Origin: a virus
Taxonomy: Duplodnaviria > Heunggongvirae > Uroviricota > Caudoviricetes
Virus record (IMG/VR): IMGVR_UViG_2600254997_000018
Reading direction: 5' to 3' (one strand)
DNA length: 12,534 nt
Below the pieces are notes generated by a model. It did no database searches. It saw nothing but the letters and a program-made list of their open reading frames with translations, and had not been told where the DNA came from. The translations under genes and the position numbers were made by a program. The stretch's first letter is position 1. Each line of letters begins with the position of its first letter. Of the stretch, positions 1 through 12,534 are shown piece after piece.

Positions 1-104
1 CACAGCTCGTTGACAGCCTCTTCACGACTGATTCCAAGGCGAGCTGCCACCACATGTGAAGAGGCTTTTTTCAGTGCTTTCAGTGCGTCAGATACGGTTT
101 CCAT
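1..104 (-). CDS. Hypothetical protein, N-terminal part only (gene runs off the window start)
   Basis: ATG at 104..102 preceded by GGAGGA Shine-Dalgarno (complement of 112-117), 21 nt downstream of the DnaC-like stop. Open frame continues to position 1, N-terminus reads METVSDALKALKKASSHVVAARLGISREEAV. Not in the ORF track because truncated. Confidence 0.3.
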   Translation of the reverse strand, partial: METVSDALKALKKASSHVVAARLGISREEAVNEL

Positions 105-125
105 TAAAATTTCCTCCGGACAAAA

Positions 126-872
126 TTACTTCACAACCCTCATATTGCTGACATTTGGACGCCAGCTATCCCAGTTAAACGTCACCCATCGACCACCGTT
201 CATGGTCATGCGGTCCATAATCCTCTCACCAAGAAGTGTACTCATTGCGGCATGATTCAGGTTTGTTAACATCCCGACACTGCACAGTGATGCTGTCCGG
301 CGATCAATTATCTGGTGTAATACCACCTGCTCGTTTTTCGTCTCACGCTGAACGCCTATTTCATCCAGGACCAGCAAATCAACCCCGCAAAGCTCCTGTA
401 AAAATTTTTCCCCGGACTGGCCGTTGTCGTAGCTGTCATGCAACACACTCATGACGTCAGACACGGTGACGATAATCACGCTGCTCCCCTTCGCCATCAG
501 CCGGTTGCCCATCGCCGCTGCAAGGTGATTTTTCCCGGTGCCGGTTTTACCGCTGAACACAAAATTCGTGCACCCGGTCATCAGTTCGTCAGCGATGGAT
601 TTTGCCTGGCTCAGCGCGTGTTTTTGCCCGTCGTTCTGCACCTGATAATTCGCAAACGAGCATTTGCTGTGCAGAGGCTGGATGCCCGAACGATTCAGGA
701 TTTTTTCCACCCGCAACTGGCGATTCTGGCGGTTAATCTCCTCGCTGCGTTTTCGTCCTTCAGCAAGCTGCCATTCCCGCCACTCCTCCACCGTCCGGTA
801 CGGTGGAACCGCCCCCTGTGGTGCAAGTCTGCGAATACGTTCAAGAACCCCGGCTGCCGCAATGTTTTTCAT
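126..872 (-). CDS. DnaC-like replicative helicase loader (prophage-encoded, IstB-like AAA+ ATPase)
   Basis: 248-aa ORF with Walker A GKTGTGKNHLAAA and Walker B LLVLDEIG. Recalled close similarity along the whole length to E. coli DnaC and to Rac YdaV. GGGGG Shine-Dalgarno upstream of the ATG at 872. Confidence 0.9.
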   Translation of the reverse strand: MKNIAAAGVLERIRRLAPQGAVPPYRTVEEWREWQLAEGRKRSEEINRQNRQLRVEKILNRSGIQPLHSKCSFANYQVQNDGQKHALSQAKSIADELMTGCTNFVFSGKTGTGKNHLAAAMGNRLMAKGSSVIIVTVSDVMSVLHDSYDNGQSGEKFLQELCGVDLLVLDEIGVQRETKNEQVVLHQIIDRRTASLCSVGMLTNLNHAAMSTLLGERIMDRMTMNGGRWVTFNWDSWRPNVSNMRVVK

Positions 873-1355
873 GCCACGTCACCCCCTGAATCCAGGCGGT
901 ATTTCAGTGTCCGGTTCAGAAATGTGATTTACGCAACGCTGCGCGGGCGAACGCCCCAGGCGGATAACCAGTTCATCCCATTTTTCCCGGAGTTTTGCCG
1001 GACTCATGATGTGTTTTTACCCAGAACGAATCCCGCTGGACACGCCCAAACATTTCACAAATCTGCCGGTGACTACGTCCATCCAGCATACGCATCATGC
1101 GCACATCATTCGCCCAGGTCGTCCAGTTAGGTTCTCTGGGGCGTGACACCTCACCATCATCACTGGCGGCCTGTTCATACAACGCCACAACCCGTCCCCA
1201 AATCCACTGCGCACAGGTTCGACATCCTCACGGGTACCCCACTGTCGCTTCGGTACATTCCAGGTATGCGCATCCGGGTGTTTCTCCAGAAATCGCTCAA
1301 CTGGTGATGATTGTTTTTCGTCCGGCAGTGAAACGTCCGGACAAGAAGATCTTTT

Positions 1356-1507
1356 ATCTTGACGGATCAGGTTTTGATACTGACGGATCGGGGTCAATCA
1401 TCGCCCCCCTAATCGGCAGTTTTTTATCAACCGTTGATCCATCAAAATTTGACGGGTCAACCGTTGAGGGGTCAATATTTGACGGGTCAACTGTTAACGG
1501 GTCATTT
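1356..1507. repeat. Iteron-like direct and inverted repeats; putative prophage replication origin inside the initiator gene
   Basis: Core GACGG(G/A)TCA recurs at least 6 times. Two near-identical 30-bp tandem units at 1448-1477 and 1478-1507, two ~21-bp units at 1359-1400, and an AT-rich stretch follows at 1505-1545. Layout resembles lambda ori within gene O. Confidence 0.6.
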
Positions 1508-1768
1508 TTTGTCCGGGCTAATTTTTCTTTTCGGTTTATATGCCTCACGCGCCGCAGTTGCAGCTGCTTCGAGTTTTTCCACATTAAGCCGATAGATATT
1601 GCTTACGTTACGCCCACCGACCTTACGCTCTTCCTTCGTCAGCCAGCCCTCTTTCGCCAGTTCTGCAATAGCAGATTTAACGGTGGATTCACTTCTTGCA
1701 CCGATCTGACGCCGGATAGTTTCAATGGCAGGCCATGACACGCCCTCGTCATTGCTGTAGTCTAGCAA
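1502..1768 (-). CDS. Helix-turn-helix N-terminal segment of a phage replication initiator (O/YdaU-like), apparently truncated
   Basis: 88-aa ORF with HTH-like stretch AIETIRRQIGARSESTVKSAIAELAKEGWL. It starts on TTG with weak Shine-Dalgarno and contains no Met, and it ends at a stop just past a T6 run (1505-1510) inside the iteron array, so it looks like one piece of a longer broken gene. Confidence 0.5.
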   Translation of the reverse strand: MLDYSNDEGVSWPAIETIRRQIGARSESTVKSAIAELAKEGWLTKEERKVGGRNVSNIYRLNVEKLEAAATAAREAYKPKRKISPDKK

Positions 1769-1875
1769 GACGGGCCATAACCGCCACCCTGGATAAGATC
1801 ATGCCGGTGAAGGCGCACCCTTCCCAGACAAGACCATGAAGCTTGCTGCTCATAAAACCCCCGAACACCGTGCTT

Positions 1876-2301
1876 TTAGTGCATCACCACAGCATTCCCT
1901 GCCGGGCCGCCGCGATTCATCTGGTCATACAAAACAACCGCTGACGCAACAAAATCATCGACATCCTTCACCAGCCGATCCCTCCGTTCGACAATCTCAC
2001 GGTAATATTCAGAACTGTGGCTGCGCATACGGGCCACCAGCAGAGGCGGCATTGCCTTTTCGATCGCCGGTAACAGAGCCTGCATTTTTTCAACAGCATC
2101 AGGGGTGTCTTTATCCAGCCAACGGAAAATTTTCTGGGTATTACGAGCCAGGGCTTCCGGATGGCTGTCGTCGTACAGTTCCGGGAACGTCATCCCCAGT
2201 TCGAAATAAGTCCGGGCTATTTCAGCTGCAGGAACTTTCTCACCATCAGGATATGCCCAGGCATTCATCGCCATGCGGATGTGCTCATGTTTGATTTTCA
2301 T
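1876..2301 (-). CDS. ydaT: YdaT-like prophage protein (occupies the CII-like position)
   Basis: 141-aa ORF starting MKIKHEHI, immediately downstream of and overlapping the ydaS-like gene by 17 nt, as in Rac ydaS-ydaT. Assignment is from recalled similarity and synteny. Confidence 0.75.
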   Translation of the reverse strand: MKIKHEHIRMAMNAWAYPDGEKVPAAEIARTYFELGMTFPELYDDSHPEALARNTQKIFRWLDKDTPDAVEKMQALLPAIEKAMPPLLVARMRSHSSEYYREIVERRDRLVKDVDDFVASAVVLYDQMNRGGPAGNAVVMH

Positions 2302-2608
2302 GAATCATTTGCCTCTTGATGCTTCGGGTATGATCGTTTTCGTCATTTGGTTGCTTCATCGACATATTCTGCGAATAACATGACGAGCGTCGTAAGTATG
2401 TCCAATCAACATCAGGACGAAGTTCTTCACACAGGACACCACCTTTTGTTGCTCGTTCAATCGCAGGACATCTCTCAGCAGGCAACTGACGTACACCTTT
2501 GATCCATTGATTTACGCTTGGAGGAGATACACCTAAAAGCCTAGCCATTGCTGATTGCCCACCGACAACAGCACAAGCTCGTTTGAATGAATAGTTATCT
2601 TTTTTCAT
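2285..2608 (-). CDS. ydaS: YdaS-like Cro-type HTH DNA-binding protein
   Basis: Sequence MKKDNYSFKRACAVVGGQSAMARLLGVSPPSVNQWIKGVRQLPAERCPAIERA closely matches recalled Rac YdaS. Start placed at ATG 2608 (GGAG Shine-Dalgarno 8 nt upstream) rather than the track's GTG at 2629. Divergent from the repressor gene. Confidence 0.8.
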   Translation of the reverse strand: MKKDNYSFKRACAVVGGQSAMARLLGVSPPSVNQWIKGVRQLPAERCPAIERATKGGVLCEELRPDVDWTYLRRSSCYSQNMSMKQPNDENDHTRSIKRQMIHENQT

Positions 2609-2629
2609 CGAATGAACTCCAAAAAACAC

Positions 2630-2732
2630 ACAATAATATTAGGCTTAGCCTAATGTGATTGTCAATAGGCTATGCCTAACGATTCGAGAGTAGGGATTGC
2701 CTAACGCGATGCGCATAGGAGACTATTAAGCA
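2630..2732. promoter_or_regulatory. Divergent promoter/operator region between the ydaS-like and repressor genes
   Basis: Three operator-like sites about 26 bp apart: perfect 17-bp palindrome ATTAGGCTTAGCCTAAT (2638-2654), TAGGC-TAT-GCCTA (2666-2678), TAGGG-ATT-GCCTA (2691-2703). AGGAG Shine-Dalgarno at 2716-2720 before the repressor ATG at 2733. Confidence 0.5.
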
Positions 2733-3209
2733 ATGCTTAGTGGTAAAGACTTAGGCCGAGCGATAGAGCAGGCCATTAACAAAAAAATTGCATCAGGAGC
2801 CGTCAAATCAAAGGCGGAAATCGCACGTCATTTCAAAGTCCAACCACCATCAATCCATGACTGGATTAAGAAAGGTTCGATAAGTAAAGACAAACTTCCA
2901 GAACTATGGCGTTTCTTTTCTGATGTGGTTGGTCCAGAGCATTGGGGGCTTAACGAATACCCCATACCAACCCCATCCACTTCAGATACAAAAAGTGAAC
3001 TTTTAGACATAAACAGCCTTTATCAAGCCGCCTCTGATGAAAAAAGAGCAATTGTGGCTTTCCTCTTATCTGGAAATGCTACGGAGCCTAGTTGGGTTGA
3101 TCATGACGTTCGCGCCTACATTGCCGCAATGGAAATGAAGGTAGCTAACTATCTGAAAAATCAAGAATCAAAACGGAAAAGCCAGAACATCACCAAGACA
3201 GGAACTTAA
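2733..3209 (+). CDS. racR: RacR-like prophage repressor (HTH, no recognisable S24 peptidase/LexA-type domain)
   Basis: 158-aa ORF (same length as Rac RacR) with HTH-like stretch SKAEIARHFKVQPPSIHDWIKKGSIS. Divergent from ydaS/ydaT-like genes as in Rac. Identity from synteny, length and recalled similarity, not a search. Confidence 0.65.
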   Translation: MLSGKDLGRAIEQAINKKIASGAVKSKAEIARHFKVQPPSIHDWIKKGSISKDKLPELWRFFSDVVGPEHWGLNEYPIPTPSTSDTKSELLDINSLYQAASDEKRAIVAFLLSGNATEPSWVDHDVRAYIAAMEMKVANYLKNQESKRKSQNITKTGT

Positions 3210-3283
3210 ACTTATATGGTACGACGGGAAATTCCTAGTTCCCGTTAGTTAACTCCTACTACCTCTCCCACAAACCATCACCT

Positions 3284-3346
3284 ATTAGGTCGCACCCAAA
3301 TCATTAGGCGCAGCCTATTGACAGGCAATTAGGCATTTCCTATAGT
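3284..3346 (+). promoter_or_regulatory. Sigma70-like promoter (TTGACA-17-TATAGT) with flanking and embedded TTAGGC operator-like sites; putative promoter of the DUF1391-dicF-dicB operon
   Basis: -35 TTGACA 3318-3323, 17-bp spacer, -10 TATAGT 3341-3346. Palindrome TAGGC-GCA-GCCTA at 3305-3317 abuts the -35, ATTAGGC at 3328-3334 sits in the spacer, and ATTAGG also occurs at 3284-3289. Confidence 0.5.
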
Positions 3347-3527
3347 TTTCCCATACCAACCCATCCCGTCCCACACAATACAGGGCAATACCTAGAGTTA
3401 CCCGGCAGTGGTCAGGGATTAAGTAGCCAGCCCGAGGCGTATGAACATGACGGCGGGAACACTTTGTATAACAGCGCAGCAGGTTTTTAGTTCCGCTACC
3501 CCAGCGTTAAGGGGAAATGAGGTCAGC

Positions 3528-3680
3528 ATGGATACTATCGAGCTTGGCAACAACGAATCTCTGGTATGTGGCGTGTTTCCCAATCAGGACGGCACGTTTA
3601 CCGCGATGACGTATACCAAAAGTAAAACGTTTAAAACCGAAGCTGCCGCGCATCGCTGGTTAGCCAGAAACGCTAACTGA
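3528..3680 (+). CDS. ydfA: DUF1391 small protein (YdfA/YdaF-like)
   Basis: 50-aa product MDTIELGNNESLVCGVFPNQDGTFTAMTYTKSKTFKTE closely matches recalled Qin YdfA. GAGG Shine-Dalgarno 7-8 nt upstream of ATG 3528. The track's 79-aa ORF from 3441 is an in-frame upstream extension. Confidence 0.7.
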   Translation: MDTIELGNNESLVCGVFPNQDGTFTAMTYTKSKTFKTEAAAHRWLARNAN

Positions 3681-3942
3681 TTAGCGCCAGTAAAAACAGG
3701 TTTCCACAGGTTAATTTACCCTGAAAAGTCAGGGCATAACACGAAAGCGCACGGCGAGATCCCTTTGCATATAAGTCTTGTCGTTAAATTTCTTCGACCG
3801 TGCGCTTCTGGTTGTGGCAATCCGCGAAATGGCGCGGCGGTAAGTATGGCGGGGTTATTCCTTCCCCCATTGAGGACACCGGGTTGTCAGGTTGACCATA
3901 CGCTTAAGTGACAACTTCGCTACAACGCCCTCTGCTATCAAT

Positions 3943-3995
3943 TTTCTGGTGACGTTTGGCGGTATCAGTTTTACTCCGTGGCTGCTCTGCCGCCC
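3943..3995 (+). ncRNA. dicF: DicF small RNA homolog (Hfq-dependent ftsZ-targeting sRNA of Qin-type prophages)
   Basis: TTTCTGGTGACGTTTGGCGGTATCAGTTTTACTCCGTGGCTGCTCTGCCGCCC differs at one position (A to G) from the 53-nt K-12 DicF as I recall it. A T5 run follows at 3996-4000. It lies upstream of the dicB-like gene, as in Qin. Confidence 0.85.
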
Positions 3996-4169
3996 TTTTT
4001 AAAGTGAATTTTGTGATGCGGTGAATGCGGCTATGCGCACGCGGAACAGTTAAAACCAAAAACAGTGTTATGGGTGGATTCTCTGTATCCGGCGTTAATT
4101 GTTAACTGGTTAACGTCACCTGGAGGCACCAGGCACTGCATCACAAAATTCATTGTTGAGGACGCGATA

Positions 4170-4358
4170 ATGGAAACGTTATTACCAAACGTTAATACGT
4201 CTGAAGGTTGTTTTGATATTGGTGTTCTGCTCAGTAACCGGGAGTTTACTGAAGATGCCATTAAGATGAGAAAATATGAACCTTATCTTCTCAATGATAA
4301 TTCCATACTTTCCAGAATTGCCCTTCTTGAACTTGGTATTATCGGAGAACAGCAGTGA
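4170..4358 (+). CDS. dicB: DicB-like cell-division inhibitor (MinC-activating small protein)
   Basis: 62-aa product METLLPNVNTSEGCFDIGV... matches K-12 DicB in length and N-terminus as recalled. GAGGA Shine-Dalgarno upstream of ATG 4170. The track ORF 4065-4358 is an upstream in-frame extension. Confidence 0.8.
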   Translation: METLLPNVNTSEGCFDIGVLLSNREFTEDAIKMRKYEPYLLNDNSILSRIALLELGIIGEQQ

Positions 4359-4543
4359 CTTCAGCGTTTGCACTGGTGATGACCGTTTTTCTTATAACGG
4401 GTGAGCCACAAAATGTGATTACCGGAATTTATGCCAGTAAAGAATCCAGCCTCCAGGCAAGAGACGAGCAAAAAATTTCTGGTGAATGCCTACCGGTAAA
4501 AAAAGTATCGCTGTACCTGAATAACGAAACACCGGCTGGATAA
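4355..4543 (+). CDS. Small membrane protein, YdfD-like (Qin lysis-protein position)
   Basis: 62-aa ORF with an N-terminal hydrophobic helix (SAFALVMTVFLITG). GTG start overlaps the dicB-like stop (GTGA) with GGAG Shine-Dalgarno 7 nt upstream; alternative ATG at 4379. Assignment by synteny (gene after dicB in Qin is ydfD). Confidence 0.55.
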   Translation: MTSAFALVMTVFLITGEPQNVITGIYASKESSLQARDEQKISGECLPVKKVSLYLNNETPAG

Positions 4544-4638
4544 CCCGCCAGCTATATTAACGCCATACCAACGGATTAAAAATGCCAGCAATGGCAGGGA
4601 TTCGTTCACCCTGAAATCTGTAATGAGGTTAAAACACA

Positions 4639-7110
4639 ATGAGTAAAATCTTTATTTGCGCTGCTATTCCTGACGAACAGGCCATAAAAGAAGATAGCGC
4701 TGTTGCGGTGGCCACTGCCATTGAAGCCGGTGATGAGCGTCGCGCACGCGCAAAATTTCACTGGCAATTTCTGGAGCAATTCCCGGCAGCTCAGGACTGC
4801 GCTTATAAATTTATTGTCTGCGAGGATAAACCCGGCATACCCCGCCCTGCCCTCGATTCCTGGGATACCGAATATATGCAGGAAAACCGCTGGGATGAGG
4901 AGTCAGCTTCCTTTGTACCGGTCGAACCAGAATCCGATCCGATGAACGTCAATTTTGACAAGCTGTCCCCTGAAGTACAGAACGCAGTCCTAGTTAAATT
5001 CGACACATGCGAAAACATCACCGTTGATATGGTGATTAGCGCACAGGAATTACTACAGGAAGACATGGCAACATTCGGCGGACATATCGTTGAAGCGTTG
5101 ATGAAAATGCCAGAAGTTAACGCCATGTATCCTGAACTTAAACTGCATGCCATCGGGTGGGTTAAGCATAAATGTGAGCCTGGCGCTAAATGGCCTGAAA
5201 TTCAGGCAGAGATGCGCATCTGGAAAAAACGTCGCGAAGGTGAACGCAAGGAAACCGGAAAATACACGTCTGTTGTTGATCTCACCCGCGCCAGAGTCAA
5301 CCAACAGAACACTGAAAACGCTGCTGAAAAAACCGGGGCTGTCACTGTTGCCATTCGCCGCGAATACAAACAGACATGGAAAACACTCGACAATGAACTG
5401 GCCTGCGCCCTCTGGCCCGGTGATGTGGATGCAGGAAACATTGACGGTACCATCCATCGCTGGGCGACAAATGAGGTTATCGACAAGGATCGCGAAGACT
5501 GGAAGCGTATCTCAGCATCAATGCGCAAACAGCCCGAAGCACTTGGCTATGACCGTCAGACTATTTTTGGCCTTGTTCGCGAACGTCCGATCGATATTCA
5601 CAAAGATCCCGTTGCACTGAACAAATATATCAGTGAATACCTGACGACAAAGGGCGTGTTTGAACATGAAGAAACAGACCAGAGCTCTACTGATGCTCTC
5701 CAGCCGTCAGCAGCACAAACTGCTCCAGTGGAGACGGCAGAATCCGATACTCAAAAAAATGAAATCCTGGTGGAAGCTGAACCATCTGTAGAGCGTGAAG
5801 GACCATTTTATTTCGTCTTTACCGATAAGGGCGGGGAAAAATACGGCAGGGCAAACAAACTTTCTGGTCTGGACAAGGCGCTGGCTGCCGGCGGTACCGA
5901 AATCTCAAAAGAAGAATATTTTGCCCGAAAAAATGGCACATACACGGGCTTACCGCAAAATGTGGATACCGCTGAAGATTCCGAACAATCAGAGCCGGTA
6001 AAAGTTACCGCTGACGAAGTAAACAAAATTATGCAGGCAGCCAATATCAGCCAGCCTGACGCCGATAAATTGCTTGCTGCATCACGTGGTGAATTTGTTG
6101 AAGGGATTAGCGACCCGAATGATCCGAAATGGGTGAAAGGGATCCAGAGTCGCGACGCTGAGGACCAGAATCAGCCCAACGTGAAACAAAATGAGCCAGA
6201 AGCGGAACAAAACAGCCCGGATACGCAACAAAACGGGCCAGAAGAACAACAACCAGAACCAGCAGTGCAACAGGAACTGGAAAAAGTTTGCACCGCATGC
6301 GGTCAGACCGGTGGCGGCAACTGTCCTGACTGTGGTGCGGTGATGGGGAACGCAACCTACCTGGAAACATTCGATGAAGAGAATCAGGCTGAAGCTCAGA
6401 AAAATGATCCGGAGGAAATGGAAGGCACTGAACATCTGCACAAGGAGAACACTGGCAGCGATCAGTATCACGCCAGCGATAATAAAACTGGCGAAACAGC
6501 AAATCCCTTAATTAAAGTGAACGGTCATCATGAAATCTCATCCACCAGCAGGTTGTGGCACCATCTGATGATTGACCTTGAAACAATGGGAAAAAATCCT
6601 GATGCGCCAATAAACGCTATAGCCGGTAAGTTTTTTGATCCGGCAACCGGAGAGATGGGGCCAGAATTCAGCAAAACTATCGATCTGGAAACCGCAGGTG
6701 GGGTCATCGATCGGGACACCATTAAGTGGTGGCTGAAACAGTCACGCGAAGCACAATCCTCCATTCTGACCGATGAAATCACGTTGGATGATGCACTGCT
6801 GCAATTCCGGGAATTTATCGACGAAAACTCCGGTGAATTTTTTGTTCAGGTCTGGGGTAACGGTGCAACTTTCGACAACGTGATTTTACGCCGTTCATAT
6901 GAACGGCAGGGGATCCCCTGCCCGTGGCGTTACACCAATGATCGCGATGTAAGAACGATGGTTGCTCTGGGACTGGTGATGGATTTCGACGCAAGAACGA
7001 CTATTCCATTCGAAGGTGAACGCCATAACGCCCTGCACGATGCGCGTTACCAGGCAAAATACGTTTCAGCCATCTGGCAAAAACTGCTCCCGAGTCAGGC
7101 TGATTTTTAA
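4639..7110 (+). CDS. Prophage exonuclease, 823 aa: RecE/exodeoxyribonuclease-VIII-like N-terminal region, CxxC-x7-CxxC zinc ribbon, C-terminal DnaQ-like (DEDDh) 3'-5' exonuclease domain
   Basis: Intact 2.47-kb ORF with GAGG Shine-Dalgarno. Motif DKLLAASRGEFVEGISDPNDPKWVKGIQ recalls RecE. C-terminal ~190 aa carry DEDDh motifs (MIDLETMG, WGNGATFDNVIL, HNALHDARYQ). Zinc ribbon encoded at 6289-6333, acidic/Gln-rich linker at ~6160-6280. Confidence 0.85.
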   Translation: MSKIFICAAIPDEQAIKEDSAVAVATAIEAGDERRARAKFHWQFLEQFPAAQDCAYKFIVCEDKPGIPRPALDSWDTEYMQENRWDEESASFVPVEPESDPMNVNFDKLSPEVQNAVLVKFDTCENITVDMVISAQELLQEDMATFGGHIVEALMKMPEVNAMYPELKLHAIGWVKHKCEPGAKWPEIQAEMRIWKKRREGERKETGKYTSVVDLTRARVNQQNTENAAEKTGAVTVAIRREYKQTWKTLDNELACALWPGDVDAGNIDGTIHRWATNEVIDKDREDWKRISASMRKQPEALGYDRQTIFGLVRERPIDIHKDPVALNKYISEYLTTKGVFEHEETDQSSTDALQPSAAQTAPVETAESDTQKNEILVEAEPSVEREGPFYFVFTDKGGEKYGRANKLSGLDKALAAGGTEISKEEYFARKNGTYTGLPQNVDTAEDSEQSEPVKVTADEVNKIMQAANISQPDADKLLAASRGEFVEGISDPNDPKWVKGIQSRDAEDQNQPNVKQNEPEAEQNSPDTQQNGPEEQQPEPAVQQELEKVCTACGQTGGGNCPDCGAVMGNATYLETFDEENQAEAQKNDPEEMEGTEHLHKENTGSDQYHASDNKTGETANPLIKVNGHHEISSTSRLWHHLMIDLETMGKNPDAPINAIAGKFFDPATGEMGPEFSKTIDLETAGGVIDRDTIKWWLKQSREAQSSILTDEITLDDALLQFREFIDENSGEFFVQVWGNGATFDNVILRRSYERQGIPCPWRYTNDRDVRTMVALGLVMDFDARTTIPFEGERHNALHDARYQAKYVSAIWQKLLPSQADF

Positions 7111-7168
7111 TGTTCAACCCGGATCGCCGCTAACGGCATATAGTTAGCGGCGGTTGTGAGATATAGCT

Positions 7169-7372
7169 ATGAGCAGCATATTTTTAACCGAAAATGAATT
7201 GCAAACGTTAACGGGCTGCAAATATGCAAGCCACCAGCGCAACTGGTTAATAAAAAATGGGCTTCCGTTCTATACCAATCGTAGTGGAAAACCGATCGTC
7301 AGTCGGGAACTGTTTACCTGTATAAAAACTTTACCACCACGTGAGGCTGAACCTGATTTCGGTGCGATCTAA
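7169..7372 (+). CDS. Excisionase-like protein (Xis, DUF4224-type)
   Basis: 67-aa ORF directly upstream of the integrase. Its stop TAA overlaps the integrase ATG (TAATG at 7370-7374), the classic xis-int arrangement. Confidence 0.6.
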   Translation: MSSIFLTENELQTLTGCKYASHQRNWLIKNGLPFYTNRSGKPIVSRELFTCIKTLPPREAEPDFGAI

Positions 7373-8397
7373 TGGGAAGACGAAGGAAAAATCCCGAACA
7401 CGAAAAATTACCGCCAAAGGTATACCCCAATAAATATAGTTATGTATGGAAACCGACATCCAGAGAATCTGTAACCTTAACTGCAATCGAGGATGGTTTA
7501 GCCGCATTATGGAAAAAGTATGAAGAAACGGTTAACCATCGCGATCGCGCAATGACATTTGGGCGTTTGTGGGAAAAATTTCTCGCCAGCGCCTATTACA
7601 GCGAGCTTAGTCCTAGAACTCAAAAAGATTATCTGCAACATCAAAAAAAGCTGCTGGCCGTATTCGGTAAGGTGCTGGCCGATTCTGTAAAACCAGAGCA
7701 CATCAGACGATACATGGACAAAAGAGGCGAGCAGAGTAAAACGCAGGCAAACCATGAAAAAAGCAGTATGTCGCGCGTTTATAGTTGGGGGTATGAGCGA
7801 GGATACGTGAAGGCTAACCCATGTGCAGGTGTAAGTAAATTCAAGGCCAAAAACCGCGAACGATATGTAACCGACAAAGAATACCAGGCAGTATTAAGCG
7901 TTGCACCTCTTCCTGTTTTTATCGCAATGGAAATTGCCTATCTGTGTGCAGCGAGGGTTTCCGATGTGTTATCGCTGAAATGGGAGCAGATTGGAAACGA
8001 CGGGATCTTTATCCAGCAAGGGAAAACAGGGAAAAAACAGATAAAAGCATGGAGTCCACGATTACAGGCGGCGATCGAAAAAGCAAAACAGTTACCAACA
8101 TCCGCCTATGTAATCAGCAATCAATACGGCAACCGATATATGTACAAAGGCTTTAACGAAATGTGGGTAGAAGCAAGAAATCACGCAGGCAAAATTTCAG
8201 GTATTTTAACCGACTTCACCTTTCATGATCTGAAGGCGAAAGGAATTTCAGACTATGAAGGAAGCAGCCGGGATAAGCAACTTTTCTCTGGTCACAAAAC
8301 CGAAGGGCAAGTGCTAATCTATGACAGGAAGGTTAAAGTTTCACCAACACTTGATGTCCCGTTACCTGAAAATATTCCAAGAAAATATTCCAAGTAA
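7372..8397 (+). CDS. Phage integrase, tyrosine site-specific recombinase
   Basis: 341-aa ORF whose C-terminal region carries residues consistent with the tyrosine-recombinase catalytic set (R in ARVSD, H/K in HDLKAKG, Y in LIYDRK). It ends 52 bp from the 3' end of tRNA-Ser. Confidence 0.9.
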   Translation: MGRRRKNPEHEKLPPKVYPNKYSYVWKPTSRESVTLTAIEDGLAALWKKYEETVNHRDRAMTFGRLWEKFLASAYYSELSPRTQKDYLQHQKKLLAVFGKVLADSVKPEHIRRYMDKRGEQSKTQANHEKSSMSRVYSWGYERGYVKANPCAGVSKFKAKNRERYVTDKEYQAVLSVAPLPVFIAMEIAYLCAARVSDVLSLKWEQIGNDGIFIQQGKTGKKQIKAWSPRLQAAIEKAKQLPTSAYVISNQYGNRYMYKGFNEMWVEARNHAGKISGILTDFTFHDLKAKGISDYEGSSRDKQLFSGHKTEGQVLIYDRKVKVSPTLDVPLPENIPRKYSK

Positions 8398-8449
8398 TTC
8401 CAAGTGTGATTTTTGTCACTGACTTAATGATGTGTAAGTGATTGAATTT

Positions 8450-8539
8450 TGGCGGAGAGAGGGGGATTTGAACCCCCGGTGGAGTTGCCCCCACTCCGGT
8501 TTTCGAGACCGGTCCGTTCAGCCGCTCCGGCATCTCTCC
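8450..8539 (-). tRNA. serU: tRNA-Ser (anticodon CGA)
   Basis: Reverse complement reads GGAGAGATGCCGGAGCGGCTGAACGGACCGGTCTCGAAAACCGGAG...TCTCTCCGCCA: 7-bp acceptor stem, anticodon loop CU-CGA-AA, long variable arm, encoded CCA. Matches E. coli serU as recalled. Confidence 0.9.
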
Positions 8540-8632
8540 GTTCAGATGGTTGCCATGATGCCAGGAAATTTGGCATTTTAACAGTCCCTGTCCGTGCAAT
8601 TTTGTTCAAGTGACGAGTTTGCGAGCAAAACG

Positions 8633-9430
8633 ATGATTAAGTGGCCCTGGAAAGTACAAGAATCAGCACATCAAACTGCCCTTCCCTGGCAGGAAGCACT
8701 ATCGATCCCCCTTTTAACGTGTCTGACAGAACAGGAACAAAGCAAATTAGTCGCTCTTGCCGAACGTTTTTTACAACAAAAACGGCTTGTTCCTTTACAG
8801 GGCTTTGAGCTGAATTCATTAAGAAGCTGCCGGATAGCACTTCTATTTTGCCTGCCCGTTCTGGAGTTAGGACTGGAATGGCTGGATGGTTTTCATGAAG
8901 TCTTAATTTATCCTGCGCCATTTGTGGTCGATGATGAATGGGAAGACGATGTCGGTCTGGTGCATAACCAACGTATTGTTCAGTCAGGTCAGAGCTGGCA
9001 GCAAGGGCCTATCGTTTTGAACTGGTTGGATATACAAGATTCTTTTGATGCTTCTGGTTTTAACCTGATTATTCATGAAGTCGCTCATAAGCTGGACACC
9101 CGTAACGGCGATCGCGCCAGCGGAGTTCCCTTTATTTCGTTGCGTGAGGTTGCTGGCTGGGAACACGATCTTCATGCTGCAATGAACAACATTCAGGAAG
9201 AAATCGAATTAGTTGGTGAGAATGCGGCGAGCATTGATGCTTATGCTGCCAGTGATCCTGCTGAATGTTTTGCCGTACTTTCTGAATATTTCTTTAGCGC
9301 CCCAGAACTTTTTGCTCCTCGTTTCCCTTCATTGTGGCAACGTTTCTGTCAATTTTATCAACAAGATCCTTTGCAGAGACTGCATCACGCTAATGATACA
9401 GACTCGTTTTCGGCGACGAATGTTCATTAA
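8633..9430 (+). CDS. mtfA: MtfA, Mlc titration factor A (zinc-dependent peptidase, HEXXH motif)
   Basis: 265-aa product from ATG 8633 ([20 protein letters not shown]...) matches E. coli MtfA as recalled, including the HEVAHKLD motif. The track ORF 8594-9430 is an upstream in-frame extension. Sits between serU and asnT as in K-12. Confidence 0.9.
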
Positions 9431-9483
9431 TTAACAACTTTGCAGATTAATTAACCAATTGAAATGGCTTATGAAATTTAGTG

Positions 9484-9512
9484 TTGACAGACAAGGTACC
9501 GCTAAGTAATAT
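9484..9512 (+). promoter_or_regulatory. Sigma70 promoter for tRNA-Asn (TTGACA-17-TAATAT with GC-rich discriminator)
   Basis: TTGACA at 9484-9489, 17-bp spacer, TAATAT at 9507-9512, followed by GCGCCCC, typical of stringently controlled tRNA promoters. tRNA starts at 9531. Confidence 0.5.
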
Positions 9513-9530
9513 GCGCCCCGTTCTCACGAT

Positions 9531-9606
9531 TCCTCTGTAGTTCAGTCGGTAGAACGGCGGACTGTTAATCCGTATGTCACTGGTTCGAGTCCAGTCAGAG
9601 GAGCCA
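9531..9606 (+). tRNA. asnT: tRNA-Asn (anticodon GUU)
   Basis: TCCTCTGTAGTTCAGTCGGTAGAACGGCGGACTGTTAATCCGTATGTCACTGGTTCGAGTCCAGTCAGAGGAGCCA, 76 nt, matches E. coli tRNA-Asn as recalled. Copy assignment (asnT) is by position next to mtfA. Confidence 0.95.
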
Positions 9607-9694
9607 AATTCTAAAGATTCGCTTTTTTAGCGCAATGTCACTGCTCTTAGTTGAGCATTGCTTTTTAACGGATAGCGGGTTTTTGACATCTTAA

Positions 9695-9726
9695 GCGCCC
9701 TCAATCTTCATGGTTGAGGGCGTTTT
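9695..9726 (+). terminator. Rho-independent terminator-like hairpin downstream of tRNA-Asn
   Basis: 9-bp GC-rich stem CGCCCTCAA / TTGAGGGCG (9696-9704 / 9714-9722), 9-nt loop, then TTTT at 9723-9726. Confidence 0.5.
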
Positions 9727-9892
9727 GCTATGAACGCCATCACCATTTTCCCCTCGATTATAAAACTTGAGTAATTCAGTAGTCTCCCCTCTTGCAACTC
9801 ACACCCAAAACTGCTTAACGAAAAGTTATTAATTTTCAATCATATTGCTATCAGGATCTACTTTTTTTCGCTGTGCTAGAAAGGGCGCATTT

Positions 9893-10838
9893 ATGTTAGC
9901 TCGTTCAGGGAAGGTAACCGTGAAGGTTACTGGCAACTCAAGCACCGCCCATGTTGCTAGCTTTATCGCTGATCCATCGACTATCGCCGCCACCAACAGT
10001 GATTTAAGTACCTTAAAGGCAACGGTTGAGGATGGCAGTGGTAACCTGATCGAAGGTCTCACTGTGTACTTCGCCTTAAAAAGCGGCTCCACCACATTAA
10101 CGTCATTAACAGCAGTGACCGATCAAAACGGAATCGCGACAATAAGCGTGAAAGGAGCGATAACGGGGAGCGTCACTGTAAGCACAGTCACAAGCAAACA
10201 GTAGATATATCGCTAGTGGCAGGCCCAGCAGACGCCTCGCAGTCCATCCTTAAGAACAACCAGTCATCACTGAAAGGGGACTTTACCGATAGTGCTGAGC
10301 TACATCTTGTTCTGCACGATATATCAGGCAATCCGATCAAAGTTTCTTAAGGGATGGAATTTGTGCAATCAGGTACAAACGTGCCCTATATGAAAATTAG
10401 CGCAATTGATTACAGTCAAAATATCAACGGTGATTACAAAGCTACTGTTACAGGAGGCGGAGAGGGTATCGCAACGCTGATCCCCGTATTGAATGGTGTT
10501 CATCAGACGGGCCTGAGTACCACGATAGAATTCATTAGCGCGGAAACCAGACCAATGACCGGTACAGTGTCAGTGAATGGTGCAAACCTACCGACAGCTT
10601 CATTCCCTTCGCAGGGATTTACCGGGGCGTATTATCAGTTGAATAATGACAGCTTTGCACCAGGAAAAACGGCGGCTGATTATTTGTTTCAAGCTCGGCC
10701 TCCTGGGTAGGCGTTGATGCTACTGGTAAAGTGACATTCAAAAATGACGGTGATAGCAATACTGTAATAATCACAGCGCCCCCAAGATCCGGTGGTGCTA
10801 TTTACCAAACAGTTCCGCATGAATCGCGTTCGGTGTGA
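9893..10838 (+). pseudogene. yeeJ: 3' remnant of a yeeJ-like inverse-autotransporter adhesin gene (bacterial Ig-like domains), frameshifted
   Basis: Ig-like-domain-type sequence (VTVKVTGNSSTAHVASFIADPSTIAATN..., ...ISGNPIKVS, EFVQSGTNVPY...) continues across at least three frames (shifts near 10200, 10350, 10700). Only ~1 kb lies between asnT and the next gene, versus ~7 kb for intact yeeJ. Gene name is from K-12 synteny. Confidence 0.45.
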
Positions 10839-10965
10839 CTATGATCATTTTCGGTGAGTATTGCTTTGCTCCAAAGGCTGGTTTTCTGTGATGATTGACC
10901 AGCCTCAGAGTATTGATGACACTACCGTTCATAACAGATCGGCATTACTATGCATAAGTACTGCC

Positions 10966-11196
10966 TCAAATTCTCGCCAAAACACTTTTTAATGCCTTTG
11001 CGAATTCATCCAGACTTATATTGTCAATTTTTTGCCCAACGATGACTGACTCCGAAACATCGGCCATTGCGGGCCATCGCGTTTTGTAATCAGCATAAAT
11101 TGCAACAACAGAGGTATTATAGGCACTTGCCATATGTAATATTGAGGTGTCAGGAGTTATTGCAATATAAGCATCTTTTATGATTGCTGCTGAACG
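10966..11196 (-). pseudogene. C-terminal fragment of a glycosyltransferase family 9 (heptosyltransferase-like, yeeL-like) gene, cut by IS10
   Basis: About 76 codons (ITPDTSILHMASAYNTSVVAIYADYKTRWP...) resemble GT9 C-terminal regions. The track ORF's first 13 codons are IS10 end sequence, so the reading frame enters the IS at 11197. Confidence 0.45.
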
Positions 11197-11209
11197 CTGA
11201 GAGATCCCC

Positions 11210-12419
11210 TCATAATTTCCCCAAAGCGTAACCATGTGTGAATAAATTTTGAGCTAGTAGGGTTGCAGCCACGAGTAAGTCTTCCCTTGTTATTGTGTAG
11301 CCAGAATGCCGCAAAACTTCCATGCCTAAGCGAACTGTTGAGAGTACGTTTCGATTTCTGACTGTGTTAGCCTGGAAGTGCTTAGTCCCAACCTTGTTTC
11401 TGAGCATGAACGCCCGCAAGCCAACATGTTAGTTGAAGCATCAGGGCGATTAGCAGCATGATATCAAAACGCTACTGAGCTGCCCGTTCGGCTATGGCGT
11501 AGGCCTAGCCCGTAGGCAGGACTTTTCAAGTCTCGGAAGGTTTCTTCAATCTGCATTCGCTTCGAATAGATATTAACAAGTTGTTTGGGTGTTCGAATTT
11601 CAACAGGTAAGTTAGTTGCTAGAACCATGGCTCCTTTGCCGACGCTGAGTAGATTTTAGGTGACGGGTGGTGACAATGAGTCCGTGTCGAGCGCTGATTT
11701 TTTCGGCCTTTAGAGCGAGATTTATACAATAGAATTTGGCATGAGATTGGATTGCTTTTAGTCAGCCTCTTATAGCCTAAAGTCTTTGAGTGACTAGATG
11801 ACATATCATGTAAGTTGCTGATAGGTTTCCAGTTTTCCGCTCCTAGGTCTGCATATTGTACTTTTCCTCTTACTCGACTTAACCAGTACCAACCCAGCTT
11901 CTCAACGGATTTATACCATGGCACTTTAAAGCCAGCATCACTGACAATGAGCGGTGTGGTGTTACTCGGTAGAATGCTCGCAAGGTCGGCTAGAAATTGG
12001 TCATGAGCTTTCTTTGAACATTGCTCTGAAAGCGGGAACGCTTTCTCATAAAGAGTAACAGAACGACCGTGTAGTGCGACTGAAGCTCGCAATACCATAA
12101 GTCGTTTTTGCTCACGAATATCAGACCAGTCAACAAGTACAATGGGCATCGTATTGCCCGAACAGATAAAGCTAGCATGCCAACGGTATACAGCGAGTCG
12201 CTCTTTGTGGAGGTGACGATTACCTAACAATCGGTCGATTCGTTTGATGTTATGTTTTGTTCTCGCTTTGGTTGGCAGGTTACGGCCAAGTTCGGTAAGA
12301 GTGAGAGTTTTACAGTCAAGTAATGCGTGGCAAGCCAACGTTAAGCTGTTGAGTCGTTTTAAGTGTAATTCGGGGCAGAATTGGTAAAGAGAGTCGTGTA
12401 AAATATCGAGTTCGCACAT
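11210..12419 (-). pseudogene. IS10 transposase, frame-disrupted (N-terminal 266 aa intact, middle and C-terminal parts in other frames)
   Basis: ORF 11619-12419 matches IS10 Tnp from MCELDILHDSLYQF... but stops at ...AKEPWF*. The expected continuation VLATNLPVEIRTPKQ... is in another frame, and the C-terminal ...HFQANTVRNRNVLSTV...GYALGKL is in ORF 11210-11419. At least three indels within ~200 bp. Confidence 0.8.
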
Positions 12420-12480
12420 CTTGTTGTCTGATTATTGATTTTTCGCGAAACCATTTGATCATATGACAAGATGTGTATCT
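12412..12480 (+). ncRNA. IS10 antisense RNA-OUT (predicted from position in IS10)
   Basis: Established IS10 layout puts pOUT about 115 bp from the outside end, transcribing outward. The window shows the expected stem: CGCACATCTTGTTGTC (12413-12428) pairs with GACAAGATGTG (12465-12475). GATC at 12467-12470. Confidence 0.5.
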
Positions 12481-12534
12481 ACCTTAACTTAATGATTTTT
12501 ATCAAAATCATTAGGGGATTCATCAGGCGTAGCG

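Follow-up and report, generated by a model that had tools for sequence, protein, structure and literature searches.

Are the broken genes on a short Escherichia coli contig decayed genes, or were they misassembled? The window analyzed here (12,534 bp) is the whole of contig ALNX01000077.1 of assembly GCA_000754045.1, the draft genome of EPEC strain E851/71. A first-pass annotation had described frame disruptions in three loci beside intact long genes and left two readings open, namely, genuine decay in a genome undergoing reduction or local assembly error. The disruptions are confirmed, and the indels cluster far beyond chance. Two separate causes best account for the three broken loci.

Contents of the contig

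The ALNX accession belongs to E. coli E851/71 (PMC3897749). At tRNA-Ser/mtfA the contig holds a Rac-like prophage remnant; it also carries what is left of yeeJ and a glycosyltransferase gene interrupted by IS10, as follows.

126..872, minus strand: DnaC/IstB-like ATPase (helicase-loader-like), intact, 248 aa; Pfam IstB_IS21 and Bac_DnaA
879..1853, minus strand: phage O-like/Rac YdaU-like replication initiator (HTH), in five frame segments with five insertion events
4639..7110, plus strand: exonuclease (RecE-like/YdfE), intact, 823 aa
7372..8397, plus strand: tyrosine integrase ORF, 341 aa; Pfam Phage_integrase, profile positions 25-165 of 172
8450..8539, minus strand: tRNA-Ser (CGA), the right-hand prophage edge, adjoining the integrase gene
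8633..9430, plus strand: mtfA, intact
9911..10805, plus strand: yeeJ remnant, residues 1947-2248, in three frames, with both ends deleted
10966..11196, minus strand: 3' portion of a family-9 glycosyltransferase gene that IS10 interrupts
11197..12526, minus strand: IS10/ISVsa5 copy, 1330 bp, its transposase split by three indels

Among the neighbors first described as clean, the exonuclease, DnaC-like, and mtfA genes are indeed open. The integrase is open as an ORF; however, PGAP flags the equivalent CDS as "frameshifted" in three relatives. The nearest complete genome, that of E. coli Z1323HEC0423, is 99.91% identical across window positions 1-11196, with 4 substitutions and 5 insertion events; the latter all fall inside 1013-1764, and there are zero indels at 1765-11196. 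The ATPase region (126..872) shows no difference at all from the closest relative.

The prophage appears to be defective, and in one relative its replication genes are closely followed by genes for a hydrolase and an IS481-family transposase. We infer that the tRNA-Ser (CGA) gene is its attachment site; K-12 Rac occupies a site different from this one beside mtfA.

The yeeJ remnant

YeeJ residues 1-1946 and the C-terminal ~110 residues are missing from the remnant, which is read in three segments (9911-10192, 10195-10689, and 10689-10805). The three shifts reported in the first-pass annotation are therefore better counted as two frame changes plus the loss of both ends. Matches to Big_1 and Invasin_D3 fall on a 103-aa fragment.

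Colinear copies of the remnant, 99.7-99.9% identical to it, occur in 17 complete genomes, which include four E2348/69 or O127:H6 records and, among them, the finished E2348/69 genome; the copy in the window differs from that of the closest relative by one substitution (at position 10143). The same indels are thus present in independent isolates, the outcome that had been named in advance as the mark of genuine decay. Because the lesion recurs in 17 complete genomes, the remnant is evidently a genuine, old, inherited pseudogene of an EPEC1-related lineage. It stems from a large internal deletion together with two frameshifts. The lesion is lineage-wide in ordinary E. coli of ~4.4 to 5 Mb, as judged by record lengths, and there is no sign of ongoing genome reduction.

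The replication initiator gene

The initiator differs from its relatives at five sites, listed here with the repeats in which two of them lie.

1013: extra G in a T6 run, unlike either neighbor, by alignment to relatives
1218..1219: extra TT, with GG on one side and CG on the other, untemplated by its neighbors
1352..1516: iteron-like direct repeats within the gene, with a 15-nt period and a 21-nt pair
1359..1360: extra T (T to TT), in the first iteron-like repeat
1512: extra T following T6-G, in the last iteron-like repeat
1764: extra A, with T and G on either side; the first frameshift that a ribosome reaches

These five insertion events between 1013 and 1764 bear out the original estimate of about five shifts. 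Amounting to six extra bases with no substitution, they are the sole differences in this gene from relatives that are 99.9% identical, and two further contigs also lack the six bases. As written, the gene starts at the authentic ATG and stops at codon 35, 5 codons past the first insertion. When the six bases are deleted, the gene encodes a 322-aa protein that is the same as the translation of the intact CDS in NZ_CP148334.1 (annotated as WP_000095676.1); the intact gene is 969 bp long.

A full-length gene is present in 1,503 complete genomes. In the best 40 of these 1,503 matches, the matched span is 982 or 974 bp, shorter than the 988-bp query; the extra bases are therefore missing from them, and all 40 are annotated as intact. 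The initiator is also 322 aa long in 24 of 24 contigs bearing an identical neighboring ATPase, these being the blocks with the longest contigs out of the 481 blocks of a public collection that list the exact ATPase. The insertions were likewise absent from four sequences that were compared individually. A pattern scan for the +TT allele (1218-1219) found none in metagenome contigs or species-representative genome contigs; the same kind of scan detected the uninterrupted allele in 3 metagenome contigs but in none of the representative genomes, and the representative-genome scan for +TT is consequently uninformative. Also, a mixed-in paralogue was considered as the source of the inserted bases and rejected, as evidenced by an alignment in which all five insertion sites are conserved in the orthologue and in one visibly diverged allele, the one alternative allele tested.

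The domain assignment of the initiator, HTH_36, is a weak precomputed match. The lambda ori sits within the O gene, and the iteron-like repeats probably mark a prophage origin here. The gene occupies 2 places in the closest complete genome and a median of 1 place among the genomes that carry it.

The IS10 copy and the interrupted glycosyltransferase gene

The IS10 copy runs from CTGAGAGATCCCC to GGGGATTCATCAG and differs from an intact ISVsa5/IS10 copy at 7 points, namely, 4 substitutions and the three indels below, which fall within 241 bp.

11384: extra A, untemplated by its neighbors
11474: extra A, untemplated by its neighbors, four bases past an A4 run
11624..11625: one C lost from a CCC run
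12527..12534: right flank, the eight bases GCGTAGCG, no repeat of the left flank TGCTGAACG

The three shifts in the transposase that were first noticed therefore stand (11384-11624). As written, the gene consists of 266-, 54-, and 69-aa ORFs in place of an intact 402-aa DDE transposase, and repair of the three indels restores the 402 residues with one of them changed. The antisense RNA-OUT is intact (Rfam RF00240, 98.8 bits, 12412-12481). The contig ends 8 bases past IS10, and these 8 bases show no match to the left flank that could mark a 9-bp target-site duplication.

Because this IS10 is missing from the 17 complete relatives, its insertion is recent; nevertheless, no other part of the contig is as divergent as this copy. 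A search of 5,426 complete genomes for a natural IS10 variant that might serve as a closer reference found none in which either pair of the substitutions co-occurs. The interruption of the glycosyltransferase gene is likewise a real event, because a second assembly, the independent draft NKAA01000099.1, has the same glycosyltransferase-IS10 junction.

Distribution of the private indels

The sister draft contig NKAA01000099.1 (isolate GCA_002461505.1) reproduces window positions 2069-11354 with 2 substitutions and 0 indels; it covers only these positions, and both disputed stretches fall outside it. The two places listed by the look-up through the neighboring ATPase belong to assemblies other than this one. 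This 9.3-kb core excludes all 8 indels that are private to the window (p = 2e-5). The sister contig ends at 2069 on one side and 158 bp into IS10 on the other, as would a contig broken at repeats. For the initiator module in E851/71, repeat status rests on this break point and on the 2 copies in one relative.

Moreover, all 8 indels fall within two patches that together cover 991 bp of the 12.5 kb (simulated p of 6e-5). The initiator has 5 indels and 0 substitutions, versus 0 indels and 4 substitutions in the remaining alignment (Fisher p = 0.008). Insertions make up 7 of the 8 events. Bacterial spontaneous indels are mostly slippage in runs, and pseudogene decay is biased to deletions; here, four of the seven insertions do not look like replication slippage, because each adds a base unlike both of its neighbors. 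ALNX01000077.1 is the sole contig with the fragment proteins: an exact look-up of ten of them found none of the three diagnostic fragments (266, 88, and 71 aa) on another contig. Unlike the yeeJ lesion, then, the initiator and IS10 lesions were not found in the other assemblies examined and are seen in one draft contig only.

Origin of the initiator and IS10 lesions

Since the lesions of the initiator and IS10 are private and spare the core shared with the sister assembly, the artefact branch is favored for them. Both of the alternatives originally posed, decay and artefact, thus appear to occur on this contig, at different loci, and the first-pass interpretation is partly borne out. We consider it very probable, from sequence comparison, that the initiator insertions and the IS10 indels are local consensus errors near both ends of a draft contig. 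The assembler may have gone past the uniquely assemblable core into both outer stretches, one of which is a mobile, sometimes multicopy lambdoid replication module with tandem iterons and the other a multicopy IS element. Poor read support or a poor consensus there could have caused the eight indels. In keeping with such errors, the lesions are private, clustered, and nearly all insertions, and their removal gives exact proteins back (for IS10, with the one changed residue). Counting against them, the last ~1 kb on either side of the contig is free of errors, which simple low coverage at the tips does not predict, and the initiator is single copy in most genomes. The strain designation suggests an isolation date of 1971, in which case decades of laboratory storage could have intervened. 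Also, because the prophage looks defective, it would tolerate a true loss of its replication gene.

That last point leads to the strongest alternative, an unlikely one in our judgment, in which all three loci are truly decayed and E851/71 carries the five initiator insertions and the three IS10 indels in two dispensable genes, one belonging to a defective prophage and the other to a redundant IS copy. The prophage does appear truncated in relatives, yeeJ and the glycosyltransferase gene really are inactivated at the same locus, and selection on the rest of a gene is gone after one frameshift. However, because the relatives are only 2 to 4 substitutions away in 9 to 11 kb, five neutral indels without a substitution in 975 bp represent a vast excess. 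The insertions predominate, and the 4 of 7 that match neither neighbor resemble neither slippage nor the deletions expected of decay; no lesion was found in any other assembly examined; and the divergence of the IS10 copy sits poorly with how recently it inserted.

A collapsed repeat, in which reads of a second, diverged replication module or IS10 were merged and their variant bases written as insertions, is considerably less plausible still. The two initiator copies in the closest complete genome would allow for it, as would the multicopy state of IS10 in many strains, and the mismatched flanks look as if the assembler had exited via another IS10 copy. Nevertheless, a mixed consensus should add substitutions, and the initiator has none relative to its true orthologue.

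If the insertions were real, they might instead record a localized burst of small, nontemplated insertions that target mobile elements in their replication and transposition genes. We give very little credence to this idea, which would imply a host process that disables the prophage origin/initiator and the IS transposase while sparing neighboring genes. Finally, programmed recoding or a regulated split gene is scarcely credible: the net insertion of +6 does return the overall frame (+3 after the third event and +6 after the fifth), but stop codons follow each shift, direct reading reveals no slippery-site context at the insertions, and the relatives examined, every one of which lacks the lesions and has the gene uninterrupted, in effect refute programmed frameshifting.

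Implications

With local consensus errors as the preferred explanation, two of the three "pseudogenes" found here should be left out of any tally of gene decay, and the contig should not be cited to show that E851/71 has lost the functions of prophage replication or IS10 transposition. The genuine events are ordinary ones, namely, a lineage-wide yeeJ deletion and an IS10 in a glycosyltransferase gene that is common to two assemblies. For similar cases, we propose a triage that needs no reads and asks two questions: are the lesions private to one assembly, and do they fall outside the core shared with a sister assembly?

Comparison with known systems

The prophage part of the window resembles a Rac-type lambdoid early region in gene order and families, with RacR, YdaS, YdaT, an HTH initiator with iterons, and an IstB/DnaC-like ATPase, and the likeness continues through DicF, DicB, the exonuclease, and the integrase. 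It differs in that the initiator gene is interrupted as written. Likewise, the gene shares with lambdoid O-type initiators an N-terminal HTH, internal iteron-like repeats, and an IstB/DnaA-type ATPase directly downstream, but the uninterrupted reading frame expected of such an initiator is absent.

The IS10 copy is ~99.5% identical over 1,329 bp to IS10 (IS10-Right of Tn10; ISVsa5, IS4 family), with the same ends and RNA-OUT kept. Unlike the reference, it is 1,330 bp long and carries 3 transposase-splitting indels and 4 substitutions.

The initiator and IS10 lesions resemble the indel errors of draft assemblies, which concentrate in repeats and poorly supported stretches, in being confined to one contig, clustered, and almost all single-base insertions. 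A further likeness is that they affect a mobile phage module and an IS element, both beyond a core that another assembly reproduces. Unlike the simple picture of such errors, the very ends of this contig (~1 kb each) are clean.

YeeJ itself is an inverse autotransporter adhesin of ~2,358 aa, with an N-terminal translocator region and a long Ig-like repeat array, an architecture that is lost here. In E2348/69 and its relatives, the remnant carries the annotation "invasin domain 3-containing protein," partial and frameshifted. Compared with the yeeJ pseudogene of EPEC E2348/69, the remnant in the window is colinear and 99.9% identical, and nothing material differs between the two.

Gene content and distribution of lesions

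The window is one entire contig, ALNX01000077.1, of the draft assembly GCA_000754045.1. PMC3897749 gives ALNX00000000 as the accession of enteropathogenic E. coli E851/71. Window positions 1-11196 are 99.91% identical to the complete E. coli genome NZ_CP148334.1, from which the annotation was carried over.

Features of the window, left to right
Left end: DUF1627 gene, end only (NZ_CP148334.1 annotation)
126-872, minus: DnaC/IstB-like ATPase
879-1853, minus: HTH replication-initiator gene
Between the initiator gene and DicF: ydaT, ydaS, racR
3944-3995: DicF antisense RNA (Rfam, 75 bits)
Right of DicF: dicB, then a 2.47-kb exonuclease gene
Right of the exonuclease gene: DUF4224 gene, then integrase
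8450-8539: tRNA-Ser(CGA)
Right of tRNA-Ser(CGA): mtfA, then tRNA-Asn
Right of tRNA-Asn: yeeJ remnant
Left of IS10: family-9 glycosyltransferase gene, 3' part
11197-12526: IS10/ISVsa5, ending eight bases short of the contig end

The first-pass annotation had described frame disruptions clustered in three loci with open neighbors, and this was correct, as evidenced by alignments against NZ_CP148334.1, an IS10 copy, and YeeJ. The ATPase, exonuclease, mtfA, and integrase ORFs are all open and carry the expected domains, and only four substitutions (3221, 3945, 10143, and 11112) separate the window from NZ_CP148334.1. Position 3221, intergenic and just past racR, is A in the window only; the four sequences set beside it (L001, L008, L009, and L010) all have C, and the difference could be a further consensus error or a true SNP. 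Position 3945, the second position of DicF, is T in the window and the sister draft and C in NZ_CP148334.1. The integrase ORF (window 7372-8422 region) encodes 341 aa and matches Pfam profile positions 25-165 of 172, but in the relatives L001, L002, and L006 the equivalent CDS of 1,051 bp bears the PGAP flag "frameshifted." Frame arithmetic on the ORF list places the possible shift in the last ~40 codons; because it is common to several strains, it is not an error of the window contig.

Genuine decay of yeeJ

The yeeJ remnant corresponds to residues 1947 to 2248 of the 2,358-aa YeeJ, read in three frames that change near 10193 and 10689, and the gene is deleted at both ends. Window 9620-11196 matches 17 complete genomes base for base, with 1,577 bases in window and genome alike and 99.7 to 99.9% identity. 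Four of the genomes are E2348/69 or O127:H6 records, among them the finished reference; the remnant's annotation there is "invasin domain 3-containing protein," partial and frameshifted. The same indels in independent isolates, proposed earlier as the mark of real decay, are thus present at yeeJ in 17 complete genomes, including finished E2348/69. The decay is genuine, and it is an old lineage marker rather than a sign of ongoing genome reduction.

Private lesions in the initiator gene and IS10 transposase

Relative to NZ_CP148334.1, the initiator gene carries +G at 1013, +TT at 1218-1219, +T at 1359, +T at 1512, and +A at 1764, which are all five insertion events of the 1-11196 alignment; the identical six extra bases also appear against two further contigs. 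As written, the gene consists of five frame segments, and translation from the true initiator ATG ends at codon 35. Deletion of the six bases yields a 322-aa protein identical to the translated intact CDS of the relative (annotated WP_000095676.1).

A full-length initiator gene occurs in 1,503 complete E. coli genomes. Among the 40 best of these matches, the extra bases are absent (spans of 982 or 974 bp for the 988-bp query), and the gene is annotated as intact in every one. Among contigs encoding the identical neighboring ATPase, the 24 examined all have a 322-aa initiator. In an exact look-up of about 15 billion proteins, the 88-aa, 71-aa, and 266-aa fragments were found in the window contig only; the +TT allele was not found in a metagenome collection in which the uninterrupted allele was.

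Compared with an intact copy, IS10 has +A at 11384, +A at 11474, -C after 11624, and four substitutions, that is, seven differences in 1.33 kb despite its recent insertion. The indels leave the transposase as separate ORFs of 266, 54, and 69 aa, and mending all three indels restores a 402-aa transposase with one residue changed. Neither IS10 substitution pair occurs together among 5,426 complete genomes; the substitutions at 12480 and 12502, at the outside end, are together in no complete E. coli genome searched. RNA-OUT is intact (12412-12481, 98.8 bits).

The insertion of IS10 into the glycosyltransferase gene is itself genuine, since two assemblies agree on the junction: an 89-aa fusion ORF across it is found in one other contig, NKAA01000099.1 (GCA_002461505.1). 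This predicted chimeric ORF (10966-11235, minus) begins in the IS10 end, runs into the glycosyltransferase 3' part, and was used as a strain marker. The insertion is absent from all 17 complete relatives, which are colinear across the site, and is therefore recent. No 9-bp target duplication is visible around the element when 11188-11196 is compared with the eight bases at 12527-12534, reflecting either an IS10-mediated deletion or rearrangement or an assembly path out of the element into the sequence flanking a different IS10 copy. The left flank reads TGCTGAACG, which relatives continue as TTTAATCG; the eight bases on the right are GCGTAGCG.

Consensus error versus strain-private decay

The first-pass annotation had posed decay and artefact as alternatives; both hold, with decay at yeeJ and artefact most probable at the other two loci. 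We propose that the initiator and transposase frameshifts are most probably local consensus errors, because they are private, because their removal restores the proteins, and because of their rate, spectrum, and position, the iterons, and the divergence of the IS10 copy.

The indels cluster beyond chance. All eight fall in two patches that together cover 991 bp (simulated p = 6e-5), and the initiator gene has five indels and no substitutions versus no indels and four substitutions in the remaining alignment (Fisher p = 0.008). Most spontaneous indels in bacteria come from slippage in runs, and decaying pseudogenes show a deletion bias. Here, insertions make up seven of the eight events, and in four of those seven the base is unlike both neighbors, a spectrum at odds with natural mutation. 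Three insertions follow a homopolymer of the inserted base at a distance of 1 to 4 bases (T6-G-[T], T4-ATC-[T], and A4-CGCT-[A]), which may recall the base-calling errors of flow-based or low-quality sequencing.

Position points the same way. The sister contig NKAA01000099.1 (L008; 9,286 bp), from an independent draft, is identical to window 2069-11354 apart from two substitutions, shows no indel, and covers neither disputed stretch; all eight indels lie in the outer parts (1-2068 and 11355-12534), outside this core (p = 2e-5). It ends inside ydaT (window 2069) and 158 bp into IS10 (11354). Short-read assemblers usually break contigs at repeats, and these break points suggest a repeated ydaT-initiator-ATPase module in the lineage. 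The initiator gene occurs twice in the closest complete genome, public contigs with the identical ATPase gene are often 2 to 5 kb long, and IS10 is multicopy in many strains. Phage matches start at 1880-1887, where the initiator gene adjoins ydaT, and this boundary marks a mosaic module. Inside the initiator gene, iteron-like repeats in tandem (1352-1516, with a period of 15 nt and an additional 21-nt pair) are probably the prophage replication origin; one insertion falls in the first repeat unit and another in the last. The repeats encode the repetitive peptide DPSNIDPSTVDPSNFDGSTVD.

Real, strain-private decay of both genes is unlikely. Loss would be tolerated in a prophage that appears defective in relatives, and two observations fit poorly with a simple artefact: the initiator gene is single copy in most genomes, and the outermost ~1 kb at either contig end is free of lesions. 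Nevertheless, the strain differs from relatives by 2 to 4 substitutions over 9 to 11 kb yet would have gained five indels and no substitutions in 975 bp, an implausible rate for mutation, and selection does not explain four of them, as one frameshift already inactivates the initiator. A collapsed-repeat consensus, itself a form of artefact, is considerably less probable still, given an initiator gene without any substitution and a diverged allele that agrees with the reference at each of the five sites. Programmed frameshifting, or anything programmed, is excluded in practice by a stop after each shift and by lesions that occur in no relative.

Relation to known systems

Every element here is already known, and there is no new biology. 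The window has a Rac-type lambdoid early region, a known system, at tRNA-Ser/mtfA; its IS10/ISVsa5 copy matches the known element with RNA-OUT; and it carries the yeeJ pseudogene already known from the E2348/69 lineage. The clustered frameshifts, too, fit a known class, that of draft-assembly indel errors in repeats.
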